From a virus (Duplodnaviria > Heunggongvirae > Uroviricota > Caudoviricetes), in IMG/VR virus record IMGVR_UViG_2844443253_000003: a DNA stretch of 52,166 bases; one strand, written 5' to 3'. Below, piece after piece: positions 2,137 to 52,166 of the stretch. A program made the position numbers and the translations under genes. Numbering within the stretch: the stretch's first letter is position 1; each line of letters starts with the position of its first letter. Below the pieces are notes generated by a model that was given only the letters and a program-made list of their open reading frames with translations, made no database searches and was not told the DNA's origin.

Positions 2137-2545
2137 TGTTTACAGCCTGGCAAGCCTCTTTGAGCACCCAGTCAACAGCGTCTTTCCATGCTCCGGTTTC
2201 GACTGGCGGATTTTCACGCTTAACCTGTTCATAGAAGCGCACTGCTTTAATCAATCCTTCTGGTGTCAGTGGCACAGGCGGGGCAGTGAATAACGCCTGA
2301 ATTTCATAGTTCGGTCTGTCGTTGCAATCCTCTTTTGTCGGTACATATTTCCAGTCACCAAACCACGGCTCCCCCTGTGAGTCCGCAATGCCTTTTTTCA
2401 CGTAGCGATATCGCCACGCTATCGGCTCTGCTTCCAGTGATGTCAGTGCAATTCGTGCCAGTTCCATTTGTTCGCCACGAGTAAGTCCGTTATCAAGCGG
2501 ATTTTTAATGAATAATTTGATACGTTCTTTGGTCATAGCGCTCAT
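2117..2545 (-). CDS. hypothetical phage protein (start trimmed to MSAMTKERIKLF to avoid overlap)
   Basis: ORF in gene string; track ORF 2117-2707 overlaps upstream gene, internal Met chosen. Confidence 0.45.
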   Translation of the reverse strand: MSAMTKERIKLFIKNPLDNGLTRGEQMELARIALTSLEAEPIAWRYRYVKKGIADSQGEPWFGDWKYVPTKEDCNDRPNYEIQALFTAPPVPLTPEGLIKAVRFYEQVKRENPPVETGAWKDAVDWVLKEACQAVNIGIKGA

Positions 2546-2546
2546 C

Positions 2547-3287
2547 TCACTCTCCTTTGATGCGAATGCCAGCAGCGCGCTCGGCTTCACTTTGTTCCCA
2601 AAACCACTTGTGAAGCGCCATAAGCTTTTCGTCAATCGGTGCATATTTGCGATTAAAGTAGGCCTGAGCATCTTTCTCAGATTCGTCCGGTAATTCGCCA
2701 GGGCCAAACAGTGTGTTATAAATCCATGCCAGTCCGCTCTTAGCGTCGCCAGTTGCCTGCCATTCGATAATGGCAGCCTGCATGACCAGAATGTTTTTCC
2801 CGATTAATAGGTCCAGTTCTTTGAACCGGTTGCGGATGTATGCATTCTCGCTTTGTAATTTCGCGTTGCGCTTTTCTGAGGCTTCAAGTAACGCCTGCTT
2901 ATCGCGTAGCGCTTCTTCCAGTTCAGCAACATGGCATTCACTATCAATAAGGTTGTTCTCTGCGGCTTCCTGCTCTGATTTTCGCAGCAAAGCAGCATAC
3001 TTTAATGCGTCCTGTGCTTTCTGGAATTTAAGTGCATAGTCAGTGGCGATTTTTTCCAGTTCAGCGATGCGCTGTTTTGCTGTTTCCCGCTCATCCAGCA
3101 ATGCCAGCACGGTTTCTGGTCCGGCCAGAAGTTTGAAGGCGTTGAGCGCATCAATATCCACGTCGTAATCTTTAAGCTCCTGCTCGCTTAACAAATCATC
3201 ATCAACTGGCAACATTAACAGGCGTTCCATTGCTGGAATTGCACGTTCCGCCGCCTCACGCAGTGCCTGATAGTCAATCTCGCTCAT
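2547..3287 (-). CDS. Ead/Ea22-like early protein (paralog 1)
   Basis: 246 aa; shares INYQALRE / RIAELE motifs with 3525-4226 and 4524-5039. Confidence 0.55.
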   Translation of the reverse strand: MSEIDYQALREAAERAIPAMERLLMLPVDDDLLSEQELKDYDVDIDALNAFKLLAGPETVLALLDERETAKQRIAELEKIATDYALKFQKAQDALKYAALLRKSEQEAAENNLIDSECHVAELEEALRDKQALLEASEKRNAKLQSENAYIRNRFKELDLLIGKNILVMQAAIIEWQATGDAKSGLAWIYNTLFGPGELPDESEKDAQAYFNRKYAPIDEKLMALHKWFWEQSEAERAAGIRIKGE

Positions 3288-3561
3288 TGGTTGCCTCCTG
3301 TTTTTCTGCCTTCAACACCATGCGAGAACCATCATCCAGTTCCCACGCGATCTCACCACCTTCAACCATGACCAGTCGCCACACCAATTGAGCAGCCTCA
3401 TTGGTAACATCACGACCTAGATCATTGCCAACGCGCACACGTCCACCTTCAACATCGCGCATTTTTTCCAGCATGATAGTTTTTGATAGCGGTGAAAAAA
3501 CAAGCTGTAGTCGTGCTGAATTACTCACTGGTTGTCTCCTTTGCGAATCTGTTCCGCCCAT
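3274..3561 (-). CDS. hypothetical phage protein
   Basis: 95-aa ORF in gene string. Confidence 0.4.
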   Translation of the reverse strand: MGGTDSQRRQPVSNSARLQLVFSPLSKTIMLEKMRDVEGGRVRVGNDLGRDVTNEAAQLVWRLVMVEGGEIAWELDDGSRMVLKAEKQEATNERD

Positions 3562-4226
3562 TCTTCAAGGGATTTCTCCGCATATTCACCAGACAGGCCA
3601 TCAATCGGATGCGGTTCATTAGCCAACTCTTCTTTCGCTGACAGAATCATGCGCGTCACGTCGAAAACTTCACGTAAAGACTTATTGATAAATCCGTGGT
3701 TGAAAGCAGCAGCAAGACGGCTTGCGGTATAGTTAATCCCCTCGTTGCGAGCCGCCGCACGAATTTCAGCCAGAAAAGCATCGGTGGCTGGAGTTTCAGG
3801 AATCCGTCTCCTCATCCGTTCTATTGCATGATTGAATCCGAAGTCTTCAGCAAGAGATACGTCATCCATATTGTCATTGTCATCCTCAATATCCCGTGGC
3901 TCCGGGATTGCAGACTTTATTCCAACATTCTCCACCGCCAGTGCCGCAAGATTAGTTTCCAGCTCTGCAATGCGTTTGCTTTGGGCTTCCCGTTCATCCA
4001 GCAGCGCCTGCACTACTACAGGATTGAAAGCTGCGATAAAACGAGCGTTGTTCTCTGCGTTTTTCTGTCCGTCAAAGCCGGGCCATTTGATAACGTCTTC
4101 ACATCGTTTATCACCGGGCGTATGCACAGCATACGTACCTGTACCCGTCGAAATAAACGCGACCCATTCGCCCTGTGTTGCCTGTTTTGCTATCTCACGC
4201 AGTGCCTGATAGTTAATTTTGGTCAT
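3525..4226 (-). CDS. Ead/Ea22-like early protein (paralog 2)
   Basis: 233 aa; motifs INYQALREIAKQATQGEW and TDAFLAEIRAA shared with paralogs. Confidence 0.55.
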   Translation of the reverse strand: MTKINYQALREIAKQATQGEWVAFISTGTGTYAVHTPGDKRCEDVIKWPGFDGQKNAENNARFIAAFNPVVVQALLDEREAQSKRIAELETNLAALAVENVGIKSAIPEPRDIEDDNDNMDDVSLAEDFGFNHAIERMRRRIPETPATDAFLAEIRAAARNEGINYTASRLAAAFNHGFINKSLREVFDVTRMILSAKEELANEPHPIDGLSGEYAEKSLEEWAEQIRKGDNQ

Positions 4227-12597: not shown

Positions 12598-13038
12598 ATG
12601 AAAAAACTAACCTTTGAAATTCGATCTCCAGCACATCAGCAAAACGCTATTCACGCAGTACAGCAAATCCTTCCAGACCCAACCAAACCAATCGTAGTAA
12701 CCATTCAGGAACGCAACCGCAGCTTAGACCAAAACAGGAAGCTATGGGCCTGCTTAGGTGACGTCTCTCGTCAGGTTGAATGGCATGGTCGCTGGCTGGA
12801 TGCAGAAAGCTGGAAGTGTGTGTTTACCGCAGCATTAAAGCAGCAGGATGTTGTTCCTAACCTTGCCGGGAATGGCTTTGTGGTAATAGGCCAGTCAACC
12901 AGCAGGATGCGTGTAAACGAATTTGCGGAGCTATTAGAGCTTATACAGGCATTCGGTACAGAGCGTGGCGTTAAGTGGTCAGACGAAGTGCGACTGGCTC
13001 TCGAATGGAAAGCGCGATGGGGAGATCGGGCTGCATGA
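12598..13038 (+). CDS. ninB: NinB (Orf-family recombination mediator)
   Basis: start at MKKLTFEIRSPAHQQNAIHAV after RBS GGGAGAGAGGGAAG. Confidence 0.8.
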   Translation: MKKLTFEIRSPAHQQNAIHAVQQILPDPTKPIVVTIQERNRSLDQNRKLWACLGDVSRQVEWHGRWLDAESWKCVFTAALKQQDVVPNLAGNGFVVIGQSTSRMRVNEFAELLELIQAFGTERGVKWSDEVRLALEWKARWGDRAA

Positions 13039-13391
13039 CTATCAAATCAAATACGCCAGCACACGACAAGGACTGCTGGCAAACGCCGCTTTGGCTTTTT
13101 GATGCACTGGATATTGAGTTTGGATTCTGGCTGGATTCGGCAGCGAGCGACAAAAATGCTCTGTGCACTCACTGGTTAACTGAGGCCGACGACGCGCTAA
13201 ATTCTGAGTGGATAAGCCACGGTGCAATCTGGAATAACCCACCGTACAGCAATATCAGGCCGTGGGTGGAAAAAGCCGCTGAGCAGTGCATACAACAGCG
13301 ACAGACGGTAGTTATGCTTGTGCCAGAGGATATGTCAGTCGGATGCCGGACATTACCGGACAACTGCTGCGGCACCTCAACTCCGATTTGA
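13035..13391 (+). pseudogene. truncated phage Dam-like N6-adenine DNA methyltransferase (N-terminal part only)
   Basis: start coupled to ninB stop (ATGA); motif NPPYS present; ORF stops about 30 codons later where the NinG frame takes over. Confidence 0.5.
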
Positions 13392-13617
13392 TGAACGCAA
13401 TATTCACAAGCAATGCGTGGTGTGCAACCAGCACAAAAGCGGAAATCTCGTTCCGTATCGCGTCGAACTGATTAGCCGCATCGGGCAGGAAGCAGTAGAC
13501 GAAATCGAATCAAACCATAACCGCCATCGCTGGACTGTCGAAGAGTGCAGGGCCATCAAGGCGGAGTATCAGCAGAAACTCAAAGACCTGCGAAACAGCA
13601 GAAGTGAGGCCGCATGA
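13318..13617 (+). pseudogene. ninG: NinG C-terminal fragment (no N-terminal half, no ATG)
   Basis: [16 protein letters not shown]...[43 protein letters not shown]...NSRSEAA matches the C-terminus of lambda NinG as I recall it. Confidence 0.6.
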
Positions 13618-13660
13618 CGTTCTCAGTAAAAACCATTCCAGATCACAAGGGAGAAGGCGC

Positions 13661-14149
13661 ATGGGCATAAGAGAACTAAACCTCACCAAAGAACAGCACG
13701 AGTGGCTGAATGGCTGGCTTGAACTGTGGGGCGCATGGGTTTATTCAGGTCGTCTGGAAAAGCGCATGAGCAGCGTAATAGCTAAGTTCATGGAGAGCGT
13801 AGAGCCGGGAAGAGTTATGACAAGGCCAATGTGTAATGATGATGATGGAATGTTGATTTCTCAGGTCGTCGATTCCGTCATGTACATTGACAAGAAAGCC
13901 TTTGGCATCCTCCTCAGCTACTACGCCCACGGCTCTTCCAAGCACGCCATTGCATCTTACTATCATCGCGTCGCAAGACCTCGCAAGATGTTATGCCGGG
14001 GCGGCGGGCGCATTCAAAAACCATCGCTCGCAACCTGTCGACGGGAAGTTGACGAAATCCTCAATGCCTCGTTGTTTATGATTTACCCGGTTCTGGATAG
14101 TGCGTTTAAAAACCGGAAACGTGTAGAGAAAATTAAACATGTAGCATAG
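13661..14149 (+). CDS. Q: late-gene antiterminator Q (QuuD/Q21-like family), start at MGIRELNL
   Basis: motifs WGAW and RPMCNDDDGMLIS / ILLSYYAHG resemble the E. coli QuuD pattern; position before tRNAs and lysis genes. Confidence 0.6.
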   Translation: MGIRELNLTKEQHEWLNGWLELWGAWVYSGRLEKRMSSVIAKFMESVEPGRVMTRPMCNDDDGMLISQVVDSVMYIDKKAFGILLSYYAHGSSKHAIASYYHRVARPRKMLCRGGGRIQKPSLATCRREVDEILNASLFMIYPVLDSAFKNRKRVEKIKHVA

Positions 14150-39993: not shown

Positions 39994-41247
39994 TTAAGGC
40001 TGTTTTTTTATTAATGTCATCGTCCATCCTGCAGGGTTGAACTTGAAAGAATACGATTCTCCTGGTGCTAAGCTTTCAAATTTTTTAACTTGCTCTTTCC
40101 ACCCGTAATCTGGGAGTGGGGTAAGATTGAAAAAATATAAACATGAGATTAACGATGTTGTATATAACATCCATGGTAGGAATTTAAAGTGCAAGTGGGA
40201 AATATAGTTTAAGAAGTAAACCAATACAGAGTACCATATAATTGTTGGTATGACAGAATATCTTCCTCCGCCATGAATTAATAATGGCCATTGCTCACTT
40301 GTAGATGAAAGCATTGGTTTTGCTAGTGAAAACGTTAATGTTAGTATTGCGAAAACTATTGCCGAGCGCATGGGGTAATTGGAAACAATAAATGTAAAAA
40401 TAGTGATGGAAAGACAAATTATTGTAATTGCAATGCAAATTGAATCATGATTCCATAAAGGTGATAAAAAGTCACCATTAGCCCATAAACCCAGAAAAAC
40501 CTTTGTTGTTAATATTTTGCAAAGTGTTGCAAAATTAGCTCCAAGAACCATATCAACTCTGGTCTCAGAGGATGTCATAATAATAGAAATAAATTGAATC
40601 AAACAAATGGCAATGAAAACGTATTCGTGAGTGGTTATTTTTTTTGTAGATAAGCGTTTTTGTATAAGTATATTTATCCCTACCATTGGAGCCATGAATA
40701 CTATAAATGGACCACTTAGTCCACATATGATTATCGCTATATAATCGTGTGCTTTTTGATAATTATTTGTAGGCTTTGGAGCTAACATAACAAGAAGTAA
40801 ATATAGTGATAAATACCAATGATCATTAGTAACATTGGCGTGCACTTCTGATACTTCAGGCATTATTATAATAAACAAAGCAGTAAATATTCTTGGTGTT
40901 ATGTTTACGTAACTAAATCTTCCAGAGAGTATGAAAGATACAAGCAATGCCCTAACAATAATTGCGGAGATGTTAAAAATTAAAGGGGCATACATTAAAT
41001 TAAAATTTAATGATATGGAGGCAATAAGTTTTGATATGGTTTGATAATATCCATTTTGAGGGAATATCATTGATGTGAATATGCCATTATTGTATGCCAT
41101 AGCATACCATACATGACCATCTTCTGCCCAAAACTGCGGTGTTCTGATTATATCAGGGCGGCGCAAATACATCAAAATAACCGCAATGAAAAATACAGCA
41201 ATTAAGAAAAATAGTTTTTTTACATATGATGTTTTAAGGCTTTTCAT
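39994..41247 (-). CDS. serotype-specific O-antigen glucosyltransferase Gtr(type), polytopic membrane protein
   Basis: 417 aa, hydrophobic, AT-rich, third gene of gtrA-gtrB-gtr operon next to attR; exact type (GtrV/GtrX/other) not determinable here. Confidence 0.8.
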
Positions 41248-42167
41248 TTTTGTTTCTCATTTTTGATGATGTATTTGGGACGATGTTTGCTTTCAATATA
41301 GATTCTGCCTATATATTCACCGAGAACACCAATCCCGATCAGCTGCACTCCACCCAAGAAAAGTATTGATACAAGCAGGGAGGGATACCCGCGTACTGGG
41401 TTACCAAAGACAAGGGTGTCTATAATCATCCATGCACCATATAAAAATGAAATGCTTGCAACAAACAAGCCTATATAAGTCCATACGCGAAGAGGAAAGG
41501 TTGAAAAACTTGTGATACCTTCCAGTGCCAGATTCCATAATTTCCAGCCATTAAATTTTGAGATGCCAGCAACGCGCTCTGCGCGTACATATTCAACGAC
41601 ATCTGTCTGACCACCCACCCAGCTCAGTATGCCTTTCATGAAAAGATTGCGCTCAGGCAACAGTTTAATGTTCTCCACAACCTCACGAGACATGAGTCGA
41701 AAATCTCCGACATTTTCCTCGATCTTTGGGGTGCTTATTTTGTTGTGTAACTTATAGAACCACTCAGCTGTCTTACGTTTCAGTCGTCCATCAGTTGAGC
41801 GGTCTGAACGTTTAGCAAGCACCATGTCAGCACCTGCCTGCCACTTTTCAATAAGATGAGGGATAACCTCAATTGGGTCTTGCAGGTCGACATCAATAGG
41901 AATTACAGCATCGCCGCTTGCATGGTCTAACCCTGCAAATAAGGCTGGTTCTTTACCAAAGTTGCGTGTAAATGACAGCGGAACAACTAGCGGGTCTGAA
42001 ACAGCCAGCGCGTTAATAATTGACTCCGTGGCATCTTTACTTCCGTCATTTATGAATACAATTTCTACTTCATATGGCTTCAACTCTTGGAATTCACGTA
42101 CCGTTTTATAGAAAACAGGTATCGCTTCTTCTTCATTGAAGACAGGAACGACAAGAGATATTTTCAT
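41244..42167 (-). CDS. gtrB: bactoprenol glucosyltransferase GtrB
   Basis: 307 aa GT-2 family N-terminus [17 protein letters not shown]...INDGSKD; C-terminal TM helices. Confidence 0.9.
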
Positions 42168-42526
42168 TTCGCATCCCTAAAGACAATGAACTTTGAATAG
42201 ACGAAACCGCACACCAGGCTGATGGCGGAGAAGGTGATAAGAGTGACTATTGGAGGAAGTGAGCATTTATCAGCAGCCCAACCAACAATCACACTCAATA
42301 TTCCCATGAATCCCACGTATAACATGTAGCGCATCGCTGTAGTCGATGCTTTGAATGTGAATCTTGCATTCGCGAAGAAGCTAAAGCTCACAGCCACTAC
42401 GAAACCTGTGAAGTTTGCCAGGGCCTGACTGGTATGTGCGGCATAGATACATACACCAAAAACCACCCAGTGTATAAGTGTGTTCAGCACACCTATAGAT
42501 GTGTACTTTACAAATAACTTTAACAT
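42164..42526 (-). CDS. gtrA: GtrA flippase-like membrane protein
   Basis: 120 aa, four predicted TM segments, [23 protein letters not shown]. Confidence 0.9.
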
Positions 42527-42728
42527 TTATTTAATCAATGAGCTCTGAAAGGCATGAAGTCTATCATCCAAGTCTCAATTGATCGATACTTGCTATGTCT
42601 GATGAGACAAAACTGAGACACATAAGGCCTCACAATGGCTTGCAAGGCTTTACATGTTTTGATGTGGTGGGACGTGAGAGCGCAGTGTTGATGGGATAAT
42701 CTCTTGAATTACAAGCGGATTCTTATAA

Positions 42729-42792
42729 TTCGTAATGCGAAGGTCGTAGGTTCGACTCCTATTATCGGCACCATTTAAATCAATAAGTTACC
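42729..42792 (+). repeat. attR core: partial 3' tRNA-Thr copy, direct repeat of 145-208
   Basis: same 64-bp sequence; preceded by phage DNA instead of the tRNA 5' half. Confidence 0.85.
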
Positions 42793-43146
42793 TCGCATTT
42801 AAGTAAACTACGTTCTCCTCTTGTGCCGTATTTGTGCCATTGCGACTTATAATCGCATCGATTTTGCTCGCGTGCTCGGTAAGATGCCCGGCTGAAAGGT
42901 GGGCGTATCTTTGAACCATTTCGAGAGTTTCCCATCCTCCCATCTCTTTAAGCGCAAGAAGAGAGACACCGGACTGAACCAGCCAGCTTGCCCAGGTATG
43001 CCTCAGGTCATGGAAGCGGAAGTTGCTAATGCCTGCCCGCTTTAACGCTCCCTTCCATGCCTTGTTGCTGTCGGTTCTCATCTTCCTTACCGCTGCTGTT
43101 TTTGTTCCGTCGCTTCGGTAGGCAGGTTTGGTGTGGACAAACACCC
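42788..43146 (-). pseudogene. C-terminal fragment of a second, divergent tyrosine integrase, truncated by IS600
   Basis: [19 protein letters not shown]...VQRYAHL motifs; differs from int at 205-1368; reading frame runs into the IS600 end at 43147. Confidence 0.7.
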
Positions 43147-44412
43147 TGAGGTGTACTGGCAATAGCGGACACTACCATTTGTTCTTTTTTTAAGCAGCCA
43201 TCTGATGATATTTTTCCCTGAAGGCTGCCGGGGAGATATTCCCCAGACGAGAGTGACGACGCTGACGATTGTAGAAAATCTCAATGTATTCCCGTATTAC
43301 TGAGATGGCTTCATCCCGGTTATTAAAACGATAGTGGCTCAGGCTCTCATTTTTCAGCGTTCCCCAGAAGCTTTCCATCGGAGCGTTGTCGTAACAGTTA
43401 CCTTTACGCGACATTGATGTTTTCAGACCAAACTGCTCCTGTATGACCCGGTAATCGTATGCGCAGTACTGTGAACCTCGATCAGAGTGGTGGATTAGCC
43501 CGGCAGGTGGGCGCTGGCTCCTGAGCGCCATAAACAGGGCTTTACCTGTCAGCTCTTTTGTCATGCGCTCTCCCATGGCGTAGCCGACAATTTCGCACGT
43601 ATAAACATCTTTGATGCCAGCGAGGTACAACCATCCCTCCTGTGTGGCAACATACGTCAGGTCCGCCACCCAGACCTGATTTGGTGCTGTAGGAGCGAAC
43701 GTCTGGTTCAGCAGATTTGGCGCAACTGGCAGATTGTGGTTCGGGTTCGTAGTCGCTCTGAACTTGCGTTTCTGCTTACAGCGTAGCCTCAGCTCCTTAC
43801 GAAGACGTGCCAGTCGGTCACGACCAACGATGATGCCATTCTCTGCCAGCTCCGTCTGGAGCCGCCGGGTTCCATATGTTTCGCGAGTGCGGATATGTGC
43901 CACCTTAATCTCCGGTTTTAGCCGCTCATCACTTTGTTTTCTGTCTGAGGGTTCATGCTGTACCCAGTTGTAATAACCGCTCCTGGATACACCAAATACC
44001 TGACACATCGCTTCAATGGGAAATTGTTGTCGCCATTGTTCGATTAACGCGTATTTTTCAGCGACTCCTGTGCAAAATACGCTGTTGCTTTTTTTTAATA
44101 TATCTCGCTCAAGGCGAGCTTCATTTAACGCCTTACGCAGTTGCAGAATTTCAGATTCCAGTTCAGCCAGCGTGCGGGAACCAGGAGTACCGAGCCCTTT
44201 TCTGGCGGCGGTAACCCATTGTCCTAAAGTGCCTTCAGGAAGGAATAATCGGGAAGCGTCTTCACTGATCGAAAGTTGATTTTCAAGAACCGTTCTGACA
44301 GCTTCGGCTTTGAACTCTTTAGAGTAACGTTGGGTTTTTCTGCTCATTATTAGCTCCTTCTGATGCCATTCTATTTCAGGAAGGAGTGTCCGTTAAACTC
44401 AGGCTACCTCAG
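43147..44412 (-). mobile_element. IS600 (IS3 family) copy 1, no flanking target duplication
   Basis: ends TGAGGTAGCCTGAGTTTAACGGACACTCC / GGTAGTGTCCGCTATTGCCAGTACACCTCA shared with copies at 47312 and 51306; flanking triplets differ (CCC vs GAC). Confidence 0.85.
43190..44347 (-). CDS. IS600 transposase as a contiguous OrfAB fusion (385 aa)
   Basis: A-run of 8 at the slippery site (vs 7 in copy 2) puts orfA and orfB in one frame. Confidence 0.8.
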   Translation of the reverse strand: MSRKTQRYSKEFKAEAVRTVLENQLSISEDASRLFLPEGTLGQWVTAARKGLGTPGSRTLAELESEILQLRKALNEARLERDILKKSNSVFCTGVAEKYALIEQWRQQFPIEAMCQVFGVSRSGYYNWVQHEPSDRKQSDERLKPEIKVAHIRTRETYGTRRLQTELAENGIIVGRDRLARLRKELRLRCKQKRKFRATTNPNHNLPVAPNLLNQTFAPTAPNQVWVADLTYVATQEGWLYLAGIKDVYTCEIVGYAMGERMTKELTGKALFMALRSQRPPAGLIHHSDRGSQYCAYDYRVIQEQFGLKTSMSRKGNCYDNAPMESFWGTLKNESLSHYRFNNRDEAISVIREYIEIFYNRQRRHSRLGNISPAAFREKYHQMAA

Positions 44413-44509
44413 ACGTCCCGTATGATGGATATGAAATCAAGACAATCACACATCCTGAACCGCCCCGGGAATCCTGGAGACTAAACTTCCTGAGAAAGAG
44501 GTAAACAGG

Positions 44510-44832
44510 ATGACTAAAAATACTCGTTTTTCCCCCGAAGTCCGTCAACGGGCAGTCCGTATGGTTCTGGAAAGTCAGGGCGAATATGACTCACAATGGG
44601 CGACAATTTGTTCCATTGCCCCAAAGATTGGCTGTACGCCGGAGACTCTGCGTGTCTGGGGTCGCCAGCATGAGCGGGATACCGGGGGCGGTGATGGAGG
44701 GCTCACCACCGCTGAACGTCAGCGTCTGAAAGAGCTGGAGCGTGAAAATCGTGAACTGCGCCGCAGTAACGATATCCTTCGCCAGGCTTCCGCTTATTTT
44801 GCGAAGGCGGAGTTCGACCGCCTCTGGAAAAA

Positions 44833-44836
<4 letters not shown>
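44510..44836 (+). CDS. IS629 OrfA
   Basis: [50 protein letters not shown]. Confidence 0.85.
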
Positions 44837-45719
<883 letters not shown>

Positions 45720-45761
45720 GTTCACAGATAAAACACTCTCCAGGAAACCCGGGGCGGTTCA

Positions 45762-46062
45762 GAAAGTAAATGAAACAGATGCTGAATACCTGGTGCGTAA
45801 ATTCGATGAGCTTGAAGCTAAATGTGCAGCACAGGAAAACAAAGTAATACCAGTGTCAACTGAACTGCCACCAGCAAATGAAAGTGTTTTGTTATTCGAT
45901 GCTAACGGAGAAGGCTGGCTAATTGGCTGGCGTTCTCTCTGGTACACCTGGGGACAAAAAGAAACCGGAGAATGGCAGTGGACATTTCAGGTCGGGGACC
46001 TTGAAAACGTCAATATCACTCACTGGGCAGTAATGCCAAAAGCACCGGAGGCTGGAGCATAA
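45762..46062 (+). pseudogene. Ead/Ea22-like gene, C-terminal fragment truncated by IS629
   Basis: [19 protein letters not shown]... similar to 4524-5039; ORF upstream part lies inside IS629. Confidence 0.55.
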
Positions 46063-46367
46063 TGACCACTTTTACCGACAAAGAACTGATTAAAGAAATT
46101 AAAGAGCGTATCAGCAGCCTTGACGTGCGAGACGATATTGAGCGCCGTGCTTATGAAATCGCACTCCTATCTCTGGAAGTAGAACCAGATGAACGCGAAG
46201 CTTATGAATTATTCATGGAAAAGCGTTTTGGTGACTTAGTAGATCGTCGGAGAGCAAAAAACGGCGATAACGAATACATGGCATGGGATATGACTCTCGG
46301 TTGGATCGTCTGGCAGCAACGAGCTGGTATCCATTTCTCAACAATGTCACAGCAAGAGGTGAAATAA
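46062..46367 (+). CDS. hypothetical phage protein (mosaic relative of 1595-1921)
   Basis: C-terminal 55 aa near-identical to 1595-1921 product, N-terminus different. Confidence 0.5.
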   Translation: MTTFTDKELIKEIKERISSLDVRDDIERRAYEIALLSLEVEPDEREAYELFMEKRFGDLVDRRRAKNGDNEYMAWDMTLGWIVWQQRAGIHFSTMSQQEVK

Positions 46368-46717
46368 TGGAGCCATACAGCCTCACACTCGATGAGGCCT
46401 GTCATTTTCTCAAGATATCCAGACCGACTGCCATTAACTGGATACGCACAGGGCGTCTTCAGGCAACACGCAAAGATCCCACTAAGAATAAATCTCCTTA
46501 CCTCACAACACGACAAGCCTGCATTGCGGCTCTTCAGTCTCCGCTGCATACTGTCCAGGTGAGCGCGGGTGATGGCATAACAGAGGAAAGAAAATGTCAC
46601 TCTTCCGCAGAGGTGAAATATGGTACGCCAGTTTCACATTGCCGAACGGTAAAAGATTTAAACAGTCTCTTGGAACAAAGGACAAAAGGCAGGCGACAGA
46701 ACTCCATGACAAGCTAA
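46367..46717 (+). CDS. xis: excisionase-like protein, second copy
   Basis: near-identical to 1245-1595 product. Confidence 0.55.
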
Positions 46718-47311
46718 AGGCTGAAGCATGGCGGGTCAGCAAACTTGGTGAAATACCTGATATAACGTTCGAGGAAGCGTGTGTCAGGTGGCTTGAAGAG
46801 AAAGCACATAAAAAATCACTGGACGATGACAAAAGCCGGATCGGATTCTGGCTTCAACATTTCGCAGGAATACAACTAAGAGACATTACTGAATCAAAAA
46901 TTTATTCAGCAATGCAGAAAATGACGAACCGGCGTCATGAGGAAAACTGGAAACTCAGGGCAGAATCATGCAGAAAAAAAGGGAAACCTGTTCCAGAATA
47001 CACGCCAAAACCAGCGTCCGTTGCAACGAAGGCTACGCATCTTTCATTTATAAAGGCCCTACTAAGAGCCGCAGAGCGTGAATGGAAAATGCTGGATAAG
47101 GCACCAATTATTAAAGTGCCTCAACCAAAGAATAAACGGATCCGCTGGCTGGAGCCCCATGAAGCACAAAGGCTGATTGATGAATGTCCGGAGCCATTAA
47201 AGTCTGTTGTTGAATTTGCACTGGCAACAGGCTTAAGACGCTCGAACATCATCAACCTTGAATGGCAACAAATAAATATGCAGCGCCGGGTGGCATGGAT
47301 AAACCCGGAAG
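46594..47311 (+). pseudogene. int: integrase N-terminal fragment (second copy) interrupted by IS600
   Basis: about 98% identical to N-terminal 238 aa of int 205-1368; frame broken at IS600 left end. Confidence 0.8.
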
Positions 47312-47375
47312 TGAGGTAGCCTGAGTTTAACGGACACTCCTTCCTGAAATAGAATGGCATCAGAAGGAGCTAATA

Positions 47376-47678
47376 ATGAGCAGAAAAACCCAACGTTACT
47401 CTAAAGAGTTCAAAGCCGAAGCTGTCAGAACGGTTCTTGAAAATCAACTTTCGATCAGTGAAGGCGCTTCCCGATTATCTCTTCCTGAAGGCACTTTAGG
47501 ACAATGGGTTACCGCCGCCAGAAAAGGGCTCGGTACTCCTGGTTCCCGCACGCTGGCTGAACTGGAATCTGAAATTCTGCAACTGCGTAAGGCGTTAAAT
47601 GAAGCTCGCCTTGAGCGAGATATATTAAAAAAAGCAACAGCGTATTTTGCACAGGAGTCGCTGAAAAATACGCGTTAA
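47376..47678 (+). CDS. IS600 OrfA
   Basis: 100 aa MSRKTQRYSKEFKAEAVRTVLENQ... Confidence 0.85.
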   Translation: MSRKTQRYSKEFKAEAVRTVLENQLSISEGASRLSLPEGTLGQWVTAARKGLGTPGSRTLAELESEILQLRKALNEARLERDILKKATAYFAQESLKNTR

Positions 47679-47713
47679 TCGAACAATGGCGACAACAATT
47701 TCCCATTGAAGCG

Positions 47714-48532
47714 ATGTGTCAGGTATTTGGTGTATCCAGGAGCGGTTATTACAACTGGGTACAGCATGAACCCTCAGACAGAAAACAAAGTGATGAGCGG
47801 CTAAAACTGGAGATTAAGGTGGCACATATCCGCACTCGCGAAACATATGGAACCCGGCGGCTCCAGACGGAGCTGGCAGAGAATGGCATCATCGTTGGTC
47901 GTGACCGACTGGCACGTCTTCGTAAGGAGCTAAGGCTACGCTGTAAGCAGAAACGCAAGTTCAGAGCGACTACGAACCCGAACCACAATCTGCCAGTTGC
48001 GCCAAATCTGCTGAACCAGACGTTCGCTCCTACAGCACCAAATCAGGTCTGGGTGGCGGACCTGACGTATGTTGCCACACAGGAGGGATGGTTGTACCTC
48101 GCTGGCATCAAAGATGTTTATACGTGCGAAATTGTCGGCTACGCCATGGGAGAGCGCATGACAAAAGAGCTGACAGGTAAAGCCCTGTTTATGGCGCTCA
48201 GGAGCCAGCGCCCACCTGCCGGGCTAATCCACCACTCTGATCGAGGTTCACAGTACTGCGCATACGATTACCGGGTCATACAGGAGCAGTCTGGTCTGAA
48301 AACATCAATGTCGCGTAAAGGTAACTGTTACGACAACGCTCCGATGGAAAGCTTCTGGGGAACGCTGAAAAATGAGAGCCTGAGCCACTATCGTTTTAAT
48401 AACCGGGATGAAGCCATCTCAGTAATACGGGAATACATTGAGATTTTCTACAATCGTCAGCGTCGTCACTCTCGTCTGGGGAATATCTCCCCGGCAGCCT
48501 TCAGGGAAAAATATCATCAGATGGCTGCTTAA
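47714..48532 (+). CDS. IS600 OrfB (DDE domain)
   Basis: 272 aa in -1 frame relative to orfA; A7 slippery run at 47627-47633. Confidence 0.85.
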   Translation: MCQVFGVSRSGYYNWVQHEPSDRKQSDERLKLEIKVAHIRTRETYGTRRLQTELAENGIIVGRDRLARLRKELRLRCKQKRKFRATTNPNHNLPVAPNLLNQTFAPTAPNQVWVADLTYVATQEGWLYLAGIKDVYTCEIVGYAMGERMTKELTGKALFMALRSQRPPAGLIHHSDRGSQYCAYDYRVIQEQSGLKTSMSRKGNCYDNAPMESFWGTLKNESLSHYRFNNRDEAISVIREYIEIFYNRQRRHSRLGNISPAAFREKYHQMAA

Positions 48533-48574
48533 AAAAGAACAAATGGTAGTGTCCGCTATTGCCAGTACACCTCA

Positions 48575-49023
48575 AAGAGAGTAAATCAAACCGCGCAATT
48601 GGCGTTGCGCTGAATGATACTGCATGTCGCGTATTGAAAAAACAAATCGGAAATCATCACCGTTGGGTATTTGTGTACAAGGAAAGCTGTACCAAACCAG
48701 ACGGAACGAAAGCGCCAACAGTAAGGAAGATGCGGTATGACGCAAACACAGCCTGGAAAGCGGCGCTGAGACGGGCTGGTATTGATGATTTCAGATTTCA
48801 CGACTTGAGACACACCTGGGCAAGTTGGCTGGTTCAAGCCGGAGTCCCGTTATCAGTGTTACAGGAAATGGGAGGCTGGGAGTCTATCGAAATGGTTCGT
48901 CGATATGCTCACCTCGCACCTAATCACCTTACCGAACACGCACGGCAAATAGACTTGATTCTGAACCCATCGGTCCCAAATTTGTCCCAGTCAAGAAATA
49001 AGGAAGGTACTAATGATGTGTAA
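48575..49023 (+). pseudogene. int: integrase C-terminal fragment (second copy)
   Basis: ESKSNRAIG...[16 protein letters not shown]...GTNDV, near-identical to C-terminus of int 205-1368. Confidence 0.8.
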
Positions 49024-49083
49024 CTTATTGATTTAAATGGTGCCGATAATAGGAGTCGAACCTACGACCTTCGCATTACGAAT
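49020..49083 (-). repeat. third copy of the 64-bp att core, inverted, joined to unique DNA
   Basis: reverse complement of 145-208; sequence beyond 49084 matches neither the tRNA 5' half nor the gtrA promoter region. Confidence 0.8.
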
Positions 49084-49371
49084 CTGTAGCACCAATCATA
49101 ACTATCTGTTTTAGCAAGCATTAACCGCATTCACTAAGCTATAGTTGATGACACAAACAGAAAGTTGATGCATGATGTTGCCATATATATGTCACAAATA
49201 CGGCACAACGATCTTCAAACATATAGCCACACATTCACAGAAGAGCACAAAGCCTTGCAATCCAGTGCAAAGCTTGGTGTGTCTCCGTTTTGTTTCATCA
49301 GTTACACATAACTATATGATCATTAACTAAAAGTCAGTATACTTGGAGAAATTTTAATTGCGTAATAGAGC

Positions 49372-50544
49372 ATGCATATGATTGAAATTAACAGTTTATT
49401 ATTAATAACATCCGTGATATTGATGTCGTTATTAGCTGTGGGGTTATTTGATAAAATTTCCCCAATAAATCTTGTTGAGCACGGCAGGAATAATCAAATA
49501 GATGGAATGCGGGGGTTCTTAGCAATTTTCGTGCTTATTCATCACGCAGCAATTTGGAATGGATACTTGTCATCTGGAGTATGGGAAGCACCTTCATCAA
49601 ATCTGTTAGCAAATTTAGGCCAAGTTGGTGTGTCATTCTTTTTTATGATTACTGGTTATCTGTTCTTTTCAAAGATTATCTCTGGAGATCAGGACTGGAC
49701 AAGGCTTTATGTATCAAGATTACTACGATTAACCCCAATGTTCATAGTTAGCCTATGTCTCATTTTTATCATTGTAGGTTTTAAGTCTGGATGGAGAATG
49801 CAGGTATCCACAGAAGAGCTTTTTGTGTCAATAATGAAGTGGTTGCCATTCACTGCGCTAGGTATGCCGAACATTAATGACGTAAAAGATTCATTTACTA
49901 TCAATGCCGCTGTAACATGGACACTTGTATATGAATGGTTCTTTTATTTTTCTCTTCCGGTAATTTCCGCGCTCATAAAAAGAAAAGTCAGTATTTACAT
50001 GGTTATGATTAGCGCAATATCGCTATTTGTTTTCATTTTATTTTTCAGTAAAATACACATAGCATCATTTCTTTTTGGGCTCCTGGCATTTTTGCTAAAT
50101 AAATCAAAGATAGTCAATGGAATTGCCAAAGCAAAAGTAACACCAATTATAATAACTGCGATAATGGTTTTTGAAATGACGTATTTCAAAACAACTTACG
50201 CACCGCTACCACTGATTCTTTGTGGAATAACATTTATCATTATCGCATCAGGTTGTGATTTGTATGGAATATTAAGATTAAATATAACCAGAAAGCTAGG
50301 AGAAACTACCTACAGCGTTTACCTTCTGCATGGGATATTCCTTTATTGCCTAATGACGTGGATTATTCCTAATAATTACACTGAAAATACATTTATCATA
50401 CTGGTAAGCACAACTGCATTTCTTATTACGTTCACATCATGCCTAACTTTTAAATTAATAGAGACGCCATTCATCAAATTAACAAAACAAACCACAACTT
50501 TAGTAAAAGAATTAATACCCACATTAACAAACAACAATCAATAA
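49372..50544 (+). CDS. acyltransferase-3 family integral membrane protein, candidate O-antigen O-acetyltransferase
   Basis: 390 aa, about 10 TM segments, AT-rich; N-proximal motif IDGMRGFLAIFVLIHH typical of acyltransferase-3/OafA-like enzymes. Confidence 0.7.
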   Translation: MHMIEINSLLLITSVILMSLLAVGLFDKISPINLVEHGRNNQIDGMRGFLAIFVLIHHAAIWNGYLSSGVWEAPSSNLLANLGQVGVSFFFMITGYLFFSKIISGDQDWTRLYVSRLLRLTPMFIVSLCLIFIIVGFKSGWRMQVSTEELFVSIMKWLPFTALGMPNINDVKDSFTINAAVTWTLVYEWFFYFSLPVISALIKRKVSIYMVMISAISLFVFILFFSKIHIASFLFGLLAFLLNKSKIVNGIAKAKVTPIIITAIMVFEMTYFKTTYAPLPLILCGITFIIIASGCDLYGILRLNITRKLGETTYSVYLLHGIFLYCLMTWIIPNNYTENTFIILVSTTAFLITFTSCLTFKLIETPFIKLTKQTTTLVKELIPTLTNNNQ

Positions 50545-51305: not shown

Positions 51306-52166
51306 TGAGGTGTACTGGCAATAGCGGACACTACCATTTGTTCTTTTTTAAGCAGCCATCTGATGATATTTTTCCCTGAAGGCTGCCGGGGAGATATTCC
51401 CCAGACGAGAGTGACGACGCTGACGATTGTAGAAAATCTCAATGTATTCCCGTATTACTGAGATGGCTTCATCCCGGTTATTAAAACGATAGTGGCTCAG
51501 GCTCTCATTTTTCAGCGTTCCCCAGAAGCTTTCCATCGGAGCGTTGTCGTAACAGTTACCTTTACGCGACATTGATGTTTTCAGACCAAACTGCTCCTGT
51601 ATGACCCGGTAATCGTATGCGCAGTACTGTGAACCTCGATCAGAGTGGTGGATTAGCCCGGCAGGTGGGCGCTGGCTCCTGAGCGCCATAAACAGGGCTT
51701 TACCTGTCAGCTCTTTTGTCATGCGCTCTCCCATGGCGTAGCCGACAATTTCGCACGTATAAACATCTTTGATGCCAGCGAGGTACAACCATCCCTCCTG
51801 TGTGGCAACATACGTCAGGTCCGCCACCCAGACCTGATTTGGTGCTGTAGGAGCGAACGTCTGGTTCAGCAGATTTGGCGCAACTGGCAGATTGTGGTTC
51901 GGGTTCGTAGTCGCTCTGAACTTGCGTTTCTGCTTACAGCGTAGCCTCAGCTCCTTACGAAGACGTGCCAGTCGGTCACGACCAACGATGATGCCATTCT
52001 CTGCCAGCTCCGTCTGGAGCCGCCGGGTTCCATATGTTTCGCGAGTGCGGATATGTGCCACCTTAATCTCCGGTTTTAGCCGCTCATCACTTTGTTTTCT
52101 GTCTGAGGGTTCATGCTGTACCCAGTTGTAATAACCGCTCCTGGATACACCAAATACCTGACACAT
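51306..52166 (-). mobile_element. IS600 copy 3, partial (runs off window end)
   Basis: right-end repeat and orfB (51348-52166) matching copies 1 and 2. Confidence 0.8.

Follow-up and report, generated by a model that had tools for sequence, protein, structure and literature searches.

IS600, an insertion sequence first described in Shigella sonnei, belongs to the IS3 group of the IS3 family, is 1264 bp long and generates a 3-bp target duplication. Elements of this family typically carry two overlapping reading frames, orfA and orfB, with orfB in the −1 frame, and versions in which these frames have been joined are already standard laboratory tools, as in the case of IS2, IS3, IS911, and IS150. 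In fused IS3, IS911, IS150, and IS1, OrfAB is the main product, and more circles and transposition products are formed. For example, a one-base insertion that turned the A6G slippery run of IS2 into A7G made OrfAB the principal product, with OrfA still seen (PMC3219604). Another group of IS elements relies on transcriptional slippage at runs of A9 or T9, with the nine-nucleotide length conserved and the slippage itself being programmed (Baranov et al., 2005; PMC1088944). In bacteria, slippage generally becomes apparent at nine A or T, and a run of eight A in a human gene led to about a tenth corrected product (PMC1088944), while runs of seven A are prone to indels in both mRNA and DNA (PMC4066793).

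Here we describe a chromosomal IS600 copy whose two frames are joined by a single additional A. The window, by which we mean the whole stretch of DNA analyzed (52,166 nucleotides), comes from the chromosome of Shigella flexneri 74-1170 (CP026793.1, assembly GCA_002950255.1), which is the sole contig encoding the exact 385-aa protein discussed below; the strain is of serotype 5a (PMC9455713). The element, hereafter copy 1, is located just past the end of the gtrA-gtrB-gtrV genes (39994-42526) of a prophage of about 42 kb that is inserted at a tRNA-Thr gene (115-190). It is full length, occupies 43147-44411 on the minus strand and measures 1265 bp, i.e., the canonical 1264 bp plus one A. On its own strand it starts with TGAGGTAGCC and ends with ...GTACACCTCA, the termini being TGAGG...CCTCA; the end coordinate of 44412 given in the first-pass annotation was 1 bp too far and took in one flanking C. 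By repeat comparison, the left inverted repeat (IRL) lies at 44382-44411 and the right inverted repeat (IRR) at 43147-43176, both on the minus strand; 20 of their first 30 positions match, and TGAGGT... is present at both ends, giving the 5'-TG and CA-3' termini. A promoter-like site, TTAACG-17-TAGAAT (44396-44368), is found inside IRL.

Copy 1 shares 99.4% nucleotide identity with a second copy in the window (copy 2) and 99.6–99.8% with annotated IS600 copies (RefSeq "IS3-like element IS600"), against the at least 95% over the full length by which copies are assigned to the same IS. However, the flanks on its own strand are GTC and GGG (GAC and CCC on the plus strand), so that the 3-bp target duplication is lacking, as had been noticed earlier from the sequence, whereas copy 2 is flanked by AAG on both sides. 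A C-terminal fragment of an older phage integrase gene, recognized by translation of its ORF and missing its N-terminal part (42788-43146, minus strand), abuts IRR, and this junction recurs in other S. flexneri genomes. Between IRL and an IS629-type element of the IS3 family (44456-45761, plus strand), which adjoins copy 1 and is common to other strains, lies a 44-bp spacer (44412-44455, no strand assigned). The orfB of this neighbor is broken into two overlapping ORFs (44833-45189 and 45051-45719); other S. flexneri genomes share the same indel structure, so this orfB is a true pseudogene and the break is no assembly error.

The departure of copy 1 from IS600 lies in the slippery run. At 44089-44096 (minus strand) there are eight A, that is, the slippery A_AAA_AAA heptamer plus one A, which is the single frame-fusing base; the minus-strand reading around the run is TTAAAAAAAAGC. 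As a result, orfAB is one contiguous ATG-to-stop ORF (43190-44347, minus strand) of 385 amino acids plus stop. The proposal of the first-pass annotation that the eighth A joins orfA and orfB into the 385-aa frameshift product was confirmed by the ORFs and by a simulated −1 shift: when one A was duplicated in copy 2, the resulting protein was that of the copy 1 ORF except for G30D, S35F, L145P, and S306F. The canonical residue at position 306 is F, and the S is private to copy 2. The OrfAB of copy 1 has the organization of a DDE transposase, with an N-terminal helix-turn-helix followed by an rve core; the Pfam matches are HTH_Tnp_1 (77.8 bits), HTH_21 (51.8 bits), rve (91.1 bits), rve_3, and rve_2. 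The catalytic residues D229, D289, and E325 are all present, and among 117 homologues D229 and D289 never vary and E325 hardly ever does.

Just 3' of the slippery run is a hairpin (44046-44086, minus strand) with the main stem GCGUAUUUU/AAAAUACGC, for which the folding of the identical copy 2 segment gave −13.1 kcal/mol with z = −1.77. It is likely the predicted frameshift stimulator, and the spacing in copy 1, a slippery heptamer with a hairpin 4–10 nt downstream, follows the rules of PMC4066793. The hairpin ends at the codon that used to terminate orfA (44044-44046) and that is no longer in frame in copy 1.

Judged by sequence, copy 1 can be assigned to IS600 and hence to the IS3 family, with the fused frame being the departure in question. 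It resembles IS600 in its 99.4–99.8% identity, inverted repeats, ORFs, domains, slippery A-run, and hairpin, but differs in the extra A, the absence of an orfA/orfB overlap, the absence of a target duplication, and the substitutions G30D, S35F, and L145P. The two overlapping ORFs that characterize the family are found in copy 2, in a third copy in the window (copy 3) and in all orthologous copies, but not in copy 1; we regard this as an allelic departure and no ground for exclusion from the family. In having one base added to the slippery run, copy 1 resembles the engineered IS2 fusion (PMC3219604). By contrast, the engineered IS2, IS3, IS911, and IS150 fusions are laboratory mutants, usually driven by strong promoters, whereas copy 1 is chromosomal and has its own weak, putative promoter. 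Copy 1 is also similar to the A9/T9 elements in that orfA and orfB meet at a long A-run, on which slippage of RNA polymerase can yield both frames, but its run is 8 nt long, a singleton, and not conserved.

A natural variant of IS600 in E. coli provides a closer comparison. This variant is a full-length element with a contiguous transposase of 379 amino acids and occurs in natural isolates, e.g., P0083, P0005, and P0012; one example is found at 2437-3683 of locus L025 (E. coli JAAPRZ010000050.1), and others at loci L026-L029. It has in common with copy 1 a contiguous orfAB in a full-length IS600. However, its frames are fused by a 17-nt deletion (ATATATTAAA|TTGCACAGG) that removes the whole slippery run, whereas those of copy 1 are fused by one extra A and the slippery run is kept as A8. 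In 15 of the 17 contigs read, the variant has a lipid A acyltransferase gene on one side and a BCCT transporter gene on the other; the two remaining contigs are IS-sized and without flanks, one of them occurring in at least 20 samples. Since short-read contigs assemble through the variant at its locus, it is low-copy. The variant shows that, at the level of assembled sequence, an element with joined frames can be maintained with no visible proliferation.

Copy 2 (47312-48574, plus strand, 1263 bp) is inserted in an integrase gene and retains the usual arrangement, with seven A at 47627-47633 and separate orfA (100 aa) and orfB (272 aa). Copy 3 (51306-52166, minus strand), which was absent from the first-pass annotation, runs off the window with its first 79 bp missing, and its slippery run is A7; in the longer locus L023 it spans 12713-13896, again with A7 in the slippery run, and A6 in the terminal run. 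There it abuts another IS629-type element, and the annotation pipeline calls a 399-aa product. Over the 861 bp inside the window, copy 3 is identical to copy 1 except for the terminal run, and its orfA has the canonical G30/S35.

This terminal run, which starts in the stop codon of orfAB, is A7 in copy 1 (43185-43191, minus strand), the canonical length that is also seen in E. coli IS600, and A6 in copy 2 (48525-48530) and copy 3 (at about 51350). We therefore considered whether copy 1 had undergone two homopolymer expansions, one in the frameshift run and one in the terminal run, but rejected this, since a terminal A7 is the canonical state and the shorter A6 run seen in copies 2 and 3 represents a real variant. 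The A6 run of copy 2 is kept in the nine other records of the locus, including strain 301 and with the exception of L016, and is therefore a real lineage marker rather than an error.

These nine records, comprising eight S. flexneri assemblies and one JGI sample, were retrieved using the 241-aa integrase fragment that adjoins copy 2. When the GtrV protein was used as the query instead, mostly E. coli prophages in other contexts were found, and there was no second copy of the junction among them. The flanks of copy 1, ATACGGGACGTC / IS600 / GGGTGTTTGTCC, are identical in at least four S. flexneri genomes (WACK01000005.1, AFHA01000015.1, CP044152.1, and CP007037.1). The four orthologous copies (loci L015, L018, L019, and L021) all have A7 in the slippery run, A7 in the terminal run, and the same nucleotide changes for G30D and S35F; the orthologue in CP007037.1 has an internal 27-bp deletion. 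Copy 1 and its flanks lacking a duplication are thus ancestral to several S. flexneri lineages, while the eighth A is private to the assembly of 74-1170. Because A7 orthologues have identical flanks without a duplication, the loss of the duplication is older than the eighth A and unrelated to it. The earlier suggestion that the missing duplication fits a rearrangement therefore holds for an old rearrangement, but its tie to the A8 run does not.

Taken together, these observations lead us to prefer the following account, to which we would give an even chance as a whole. Copy 1 would be an ordinary, old resident IS600 in the prophage-remnant region beside gtrABV of S. flexneri 74-1170, and its target duplication would have been lost in an ancestral IS-mediated rearrangement. 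Its A7 run would later have gained one A by replication slippage in 74-1170, a change that would be recent, private, and probably near-neutral. On the narrower question of the origin of the eighth A, we consider a real replication slip and a homopolymer error of long-read sequencing roughly equally probable.

The strongest alternative, which we rate somewhat below an even chance, is that the eighth A is an assembly artefact, i.e., the true run is A7 as in the orthologues, the eighth A is an error of a long-read-only consensus, and copy 1 is a standard two-ORF IS600. The eighth A occurs in one assembly only, against the A7 of the four orthologous copies, and lies in a long homopolymer inside a multi-copy repeat. 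The accession block suggests that CP026793.1 is a PacBio assembly, given that the neighboring CP026832 is described as a PacBio sequence from Kim et al. (2018). However, over 7824 colinear bases, 74-1170 differs from three of the orthologue genomes by 27–37 substitutions and by exactly one gap, which is the eighth A, so that an artefact would have to be the sole indel in 7.8 kb. At least seven other runs of seven or more bases in the window are confirmed by independent assemblies; for example, agreement was seen for T7 at 40003, T8 at 40638, T7 at 41215, A7 at 43185, A7 at 46974, and the run at 47627. The three T-runs lie in GtrV, the exact protein of which is present in 94 blocks of the collection, and the A7 run at 46974 lies in the 241-aa integrase fragment, which is listed in 269 blocks. 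As these long runs match independent assemblies, the assembly is locally accurate. Comparison of the prophage with sequenced phages was of no use for gauging this accuracy, as the best matches were mosaic and 94–97% identical. The direction of the change also argues against an artefact. Homopolymer errors in long-read consensus sequences mostly take the form of deletions, and here a base was inserted; the rarity of A8 relative to A6 in plasmids is consistent with this pattern.

In addition to the eighth A, the copy 1 of 74-1170 has a second private difference, T498C (L145P), located 182 bp from the A8 run. This substitution could reflect gene conversion, or alternatively a consensus contaminated by other IS600 copies.

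How often the slippery run varies elsewhere was surveyed using an 88-bp probe centered on the A8 run, counting records with a place that covers at least 80% of the probe. Among 1333 records from complete E. coli genomes, a perfect A8 was found in three and a perfect A6 in six. Among 262 records from the plasmid collection, a perfect A8 was found in three and a perfect A6 in at least 12, with an estimate of about 29 that derives from the bands of at least 99% identity (74 with the A6 probe vs. 48 with the A8 probe) and assumes equal partial perfect matches. In plasmid assemblies, A8 is outnumbered by A6 about tenfold. The six-to-three ratio of A6 to A8 records in E. coli is as a deletion-biased mutational spectrum would give. 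The three E. coli A8 copies are full-length (1265 bp), lie at unrelated loci and have their own 3-bp duplications (ATC, GAA, and ATG), and in all, A8 outside 74-1170 was found at six unrelated loci, all of them singletons, three with intact target duplications. Of the three plasmid A8 records, two come from invasion plasmids of S. flexneri, with the copies at 1726-2990 of locus L032 (S. flexneri 1b, CP128221.1) and 1726-2990 of locus L031 (LR861786.1); neither has a target duplication, and the copy in CP128221.1 is of the D30/F35 subtype, as is copy 1.

Run-length variants at the slippery site are thus sporadic in both directions, with A8 being the rarer. Of the six E. coli A6 records, two are from clonal O145:H28 genomes that have A6 at the same site (NZ_CP007136.1, 2374329-2374414; NZ_CP006027.1, 2374331-2374416), which indicates that the run-length mutation there is real and heritable. 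However, where A8 or A6 occurs as a singleton in another long-read assembly, it could equally be an error, and the clustering of plasmid deviations by assembly series (e.g., A6 in CP102201-CP102223) suggests technical causes for at least part of the variation, which adds to the case for an artefact. Because the assemblies surveyed are the only ones that resolve IS copies, the census does not separate mutation from error.

If the eighth A is taken as real, in accordance with our preferred account, its products can be predicted. Plain translation of the A8 copy yields the 385-aa OrfAB. Slippage of the ribosome by −1 would give an OrfA-like protein of 96 aa with the C-terminus KKKQQRILHRSR, as computed from the sequence, while an mRNA one A shorter would encode the normal 100-aa OrfA. 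Since the slippery heptamer and the hairpin are retained, the OrfAB:OrfA ratio would be inverted rather than OrfA being abolished. Little free OrfA had been expected in the first-pass annotation; with the frameshift signal kept, however, an OrfA-like protein would still arise, for which IS2 provides the precedent (PMC3219604). The accompanying suggestion that the copy could be hyperactive amounts to an analogy with engineered IS2, IS3, and IS911 fusions, and it finds no counterpart in daughter copies: a search for the exact fused protein returned one place in one genome only. Nothing indicates that copy 1 has transposed since it gained the eighth A.

The residues that distinguish copy 1 also bear on its activity. 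G30D and S35F are located in the helix-turn-helix, and both fall outside the residues of 15 full-length homologues; together they bring the HTH_Tnp_1 score down by 6 bits, from 83.8 to 77.8. L145P is uninformative, because its column is variable, P being found in 4 of 116 homologues. The D30/F35 subtype is found on S. flexneri invasion plasmids (pINV), with 57 plasmid records at 99% identity or more (e.g., locus L030), and the same search at the same threshold found none in E. coli genomes. This distribution places copy 1 in an apparently S. flexneri-specific IS600 subtype whose DNA-binding domain carries G30D and S35F. We dropped the idea that its substitutions make copy 1 clearly defective, given the variable column of L145P and the occurrence of the D30/F35 subtype also on pINV plasmids; it is kept as a weak hint.

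It is improbable that the eighth A is both real and consequential, in the sense of a constitutive OrfAB that would render copy 1 hyperactive and add to IS600 movement or rearrangement in 74-1170: the engineered A7G allele of IS2 and the intact inverted repeats and promoter-like site would favor such an effect, but the fused protein is confined to a single place in a single genome, the flanks without a duplication are older than the A8 change, all A8 copies found elsewhere are singletons, the 379-aa variant is low-copy and occupies one locus in almost all of the assemblies found with flanks, with no sign of spread, and G30D and S35F depart from the residues of the homologues. The broader form of this idea, a natural "transposase-up" allele in which a one-base slip gives constitutive OrfAB and recurrent, purged alleles help to drive IS600 bursts and rearrangement in Shigella, likewise has only a slim chance of being correct in our estimation. 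If the eighth A were real and active, a one-base slip in the frameshift run would switch an IS from low to high transposase output, and slips of this kind might account in part for the episodic expansion of IS elements in Shigella. As the evidence stands, this well-known element carries either a single-base variant private to one assembly or an error, with no consequence seen.

The practical value of the A8 case lies rather in a caution on protein-level IS600 data. Contiguous A8 IS600 coding sequences are already present in RefSeq, where they are annotated without comment. As annotated by PGAP, A7 copies (with annotated slippage) and A8 copies (as a contiguous CDS) have the identical 385-aa product, and since the two products are identical, protein-level data and protein-based censuses cannot separate the alleles.

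Beyond copy 1, the IS600 copies at the locus (L015-L024, around window positions 42600-49100) are SNP mosaics across strains, with differences at positions 153, 168-169, 498, 622, and 981. The flanks of the "same" copy vary as well, for example TGCGGCTCTGAC in strain 301 and a different right flank at copy 2 in L016. These mosaics and flank differences suggest that IS600 copies have repeatedly recombined or undergone gene conversion with one another. The window also contains two closely related integrase genes, 45 kb apart and in inverted orientation. The integrase region of the prophage (145-1806, gene at 205-1368, beside the tRNA-Thr gene) is 98–99% identical to the region at 46156-49083, which is interrupted by copy 2, leaving the gene fragments 46594-47319 and 48559-49023. 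An oac-like acyltransferase gene (49372-50544) lies beside the broken integrase gene.
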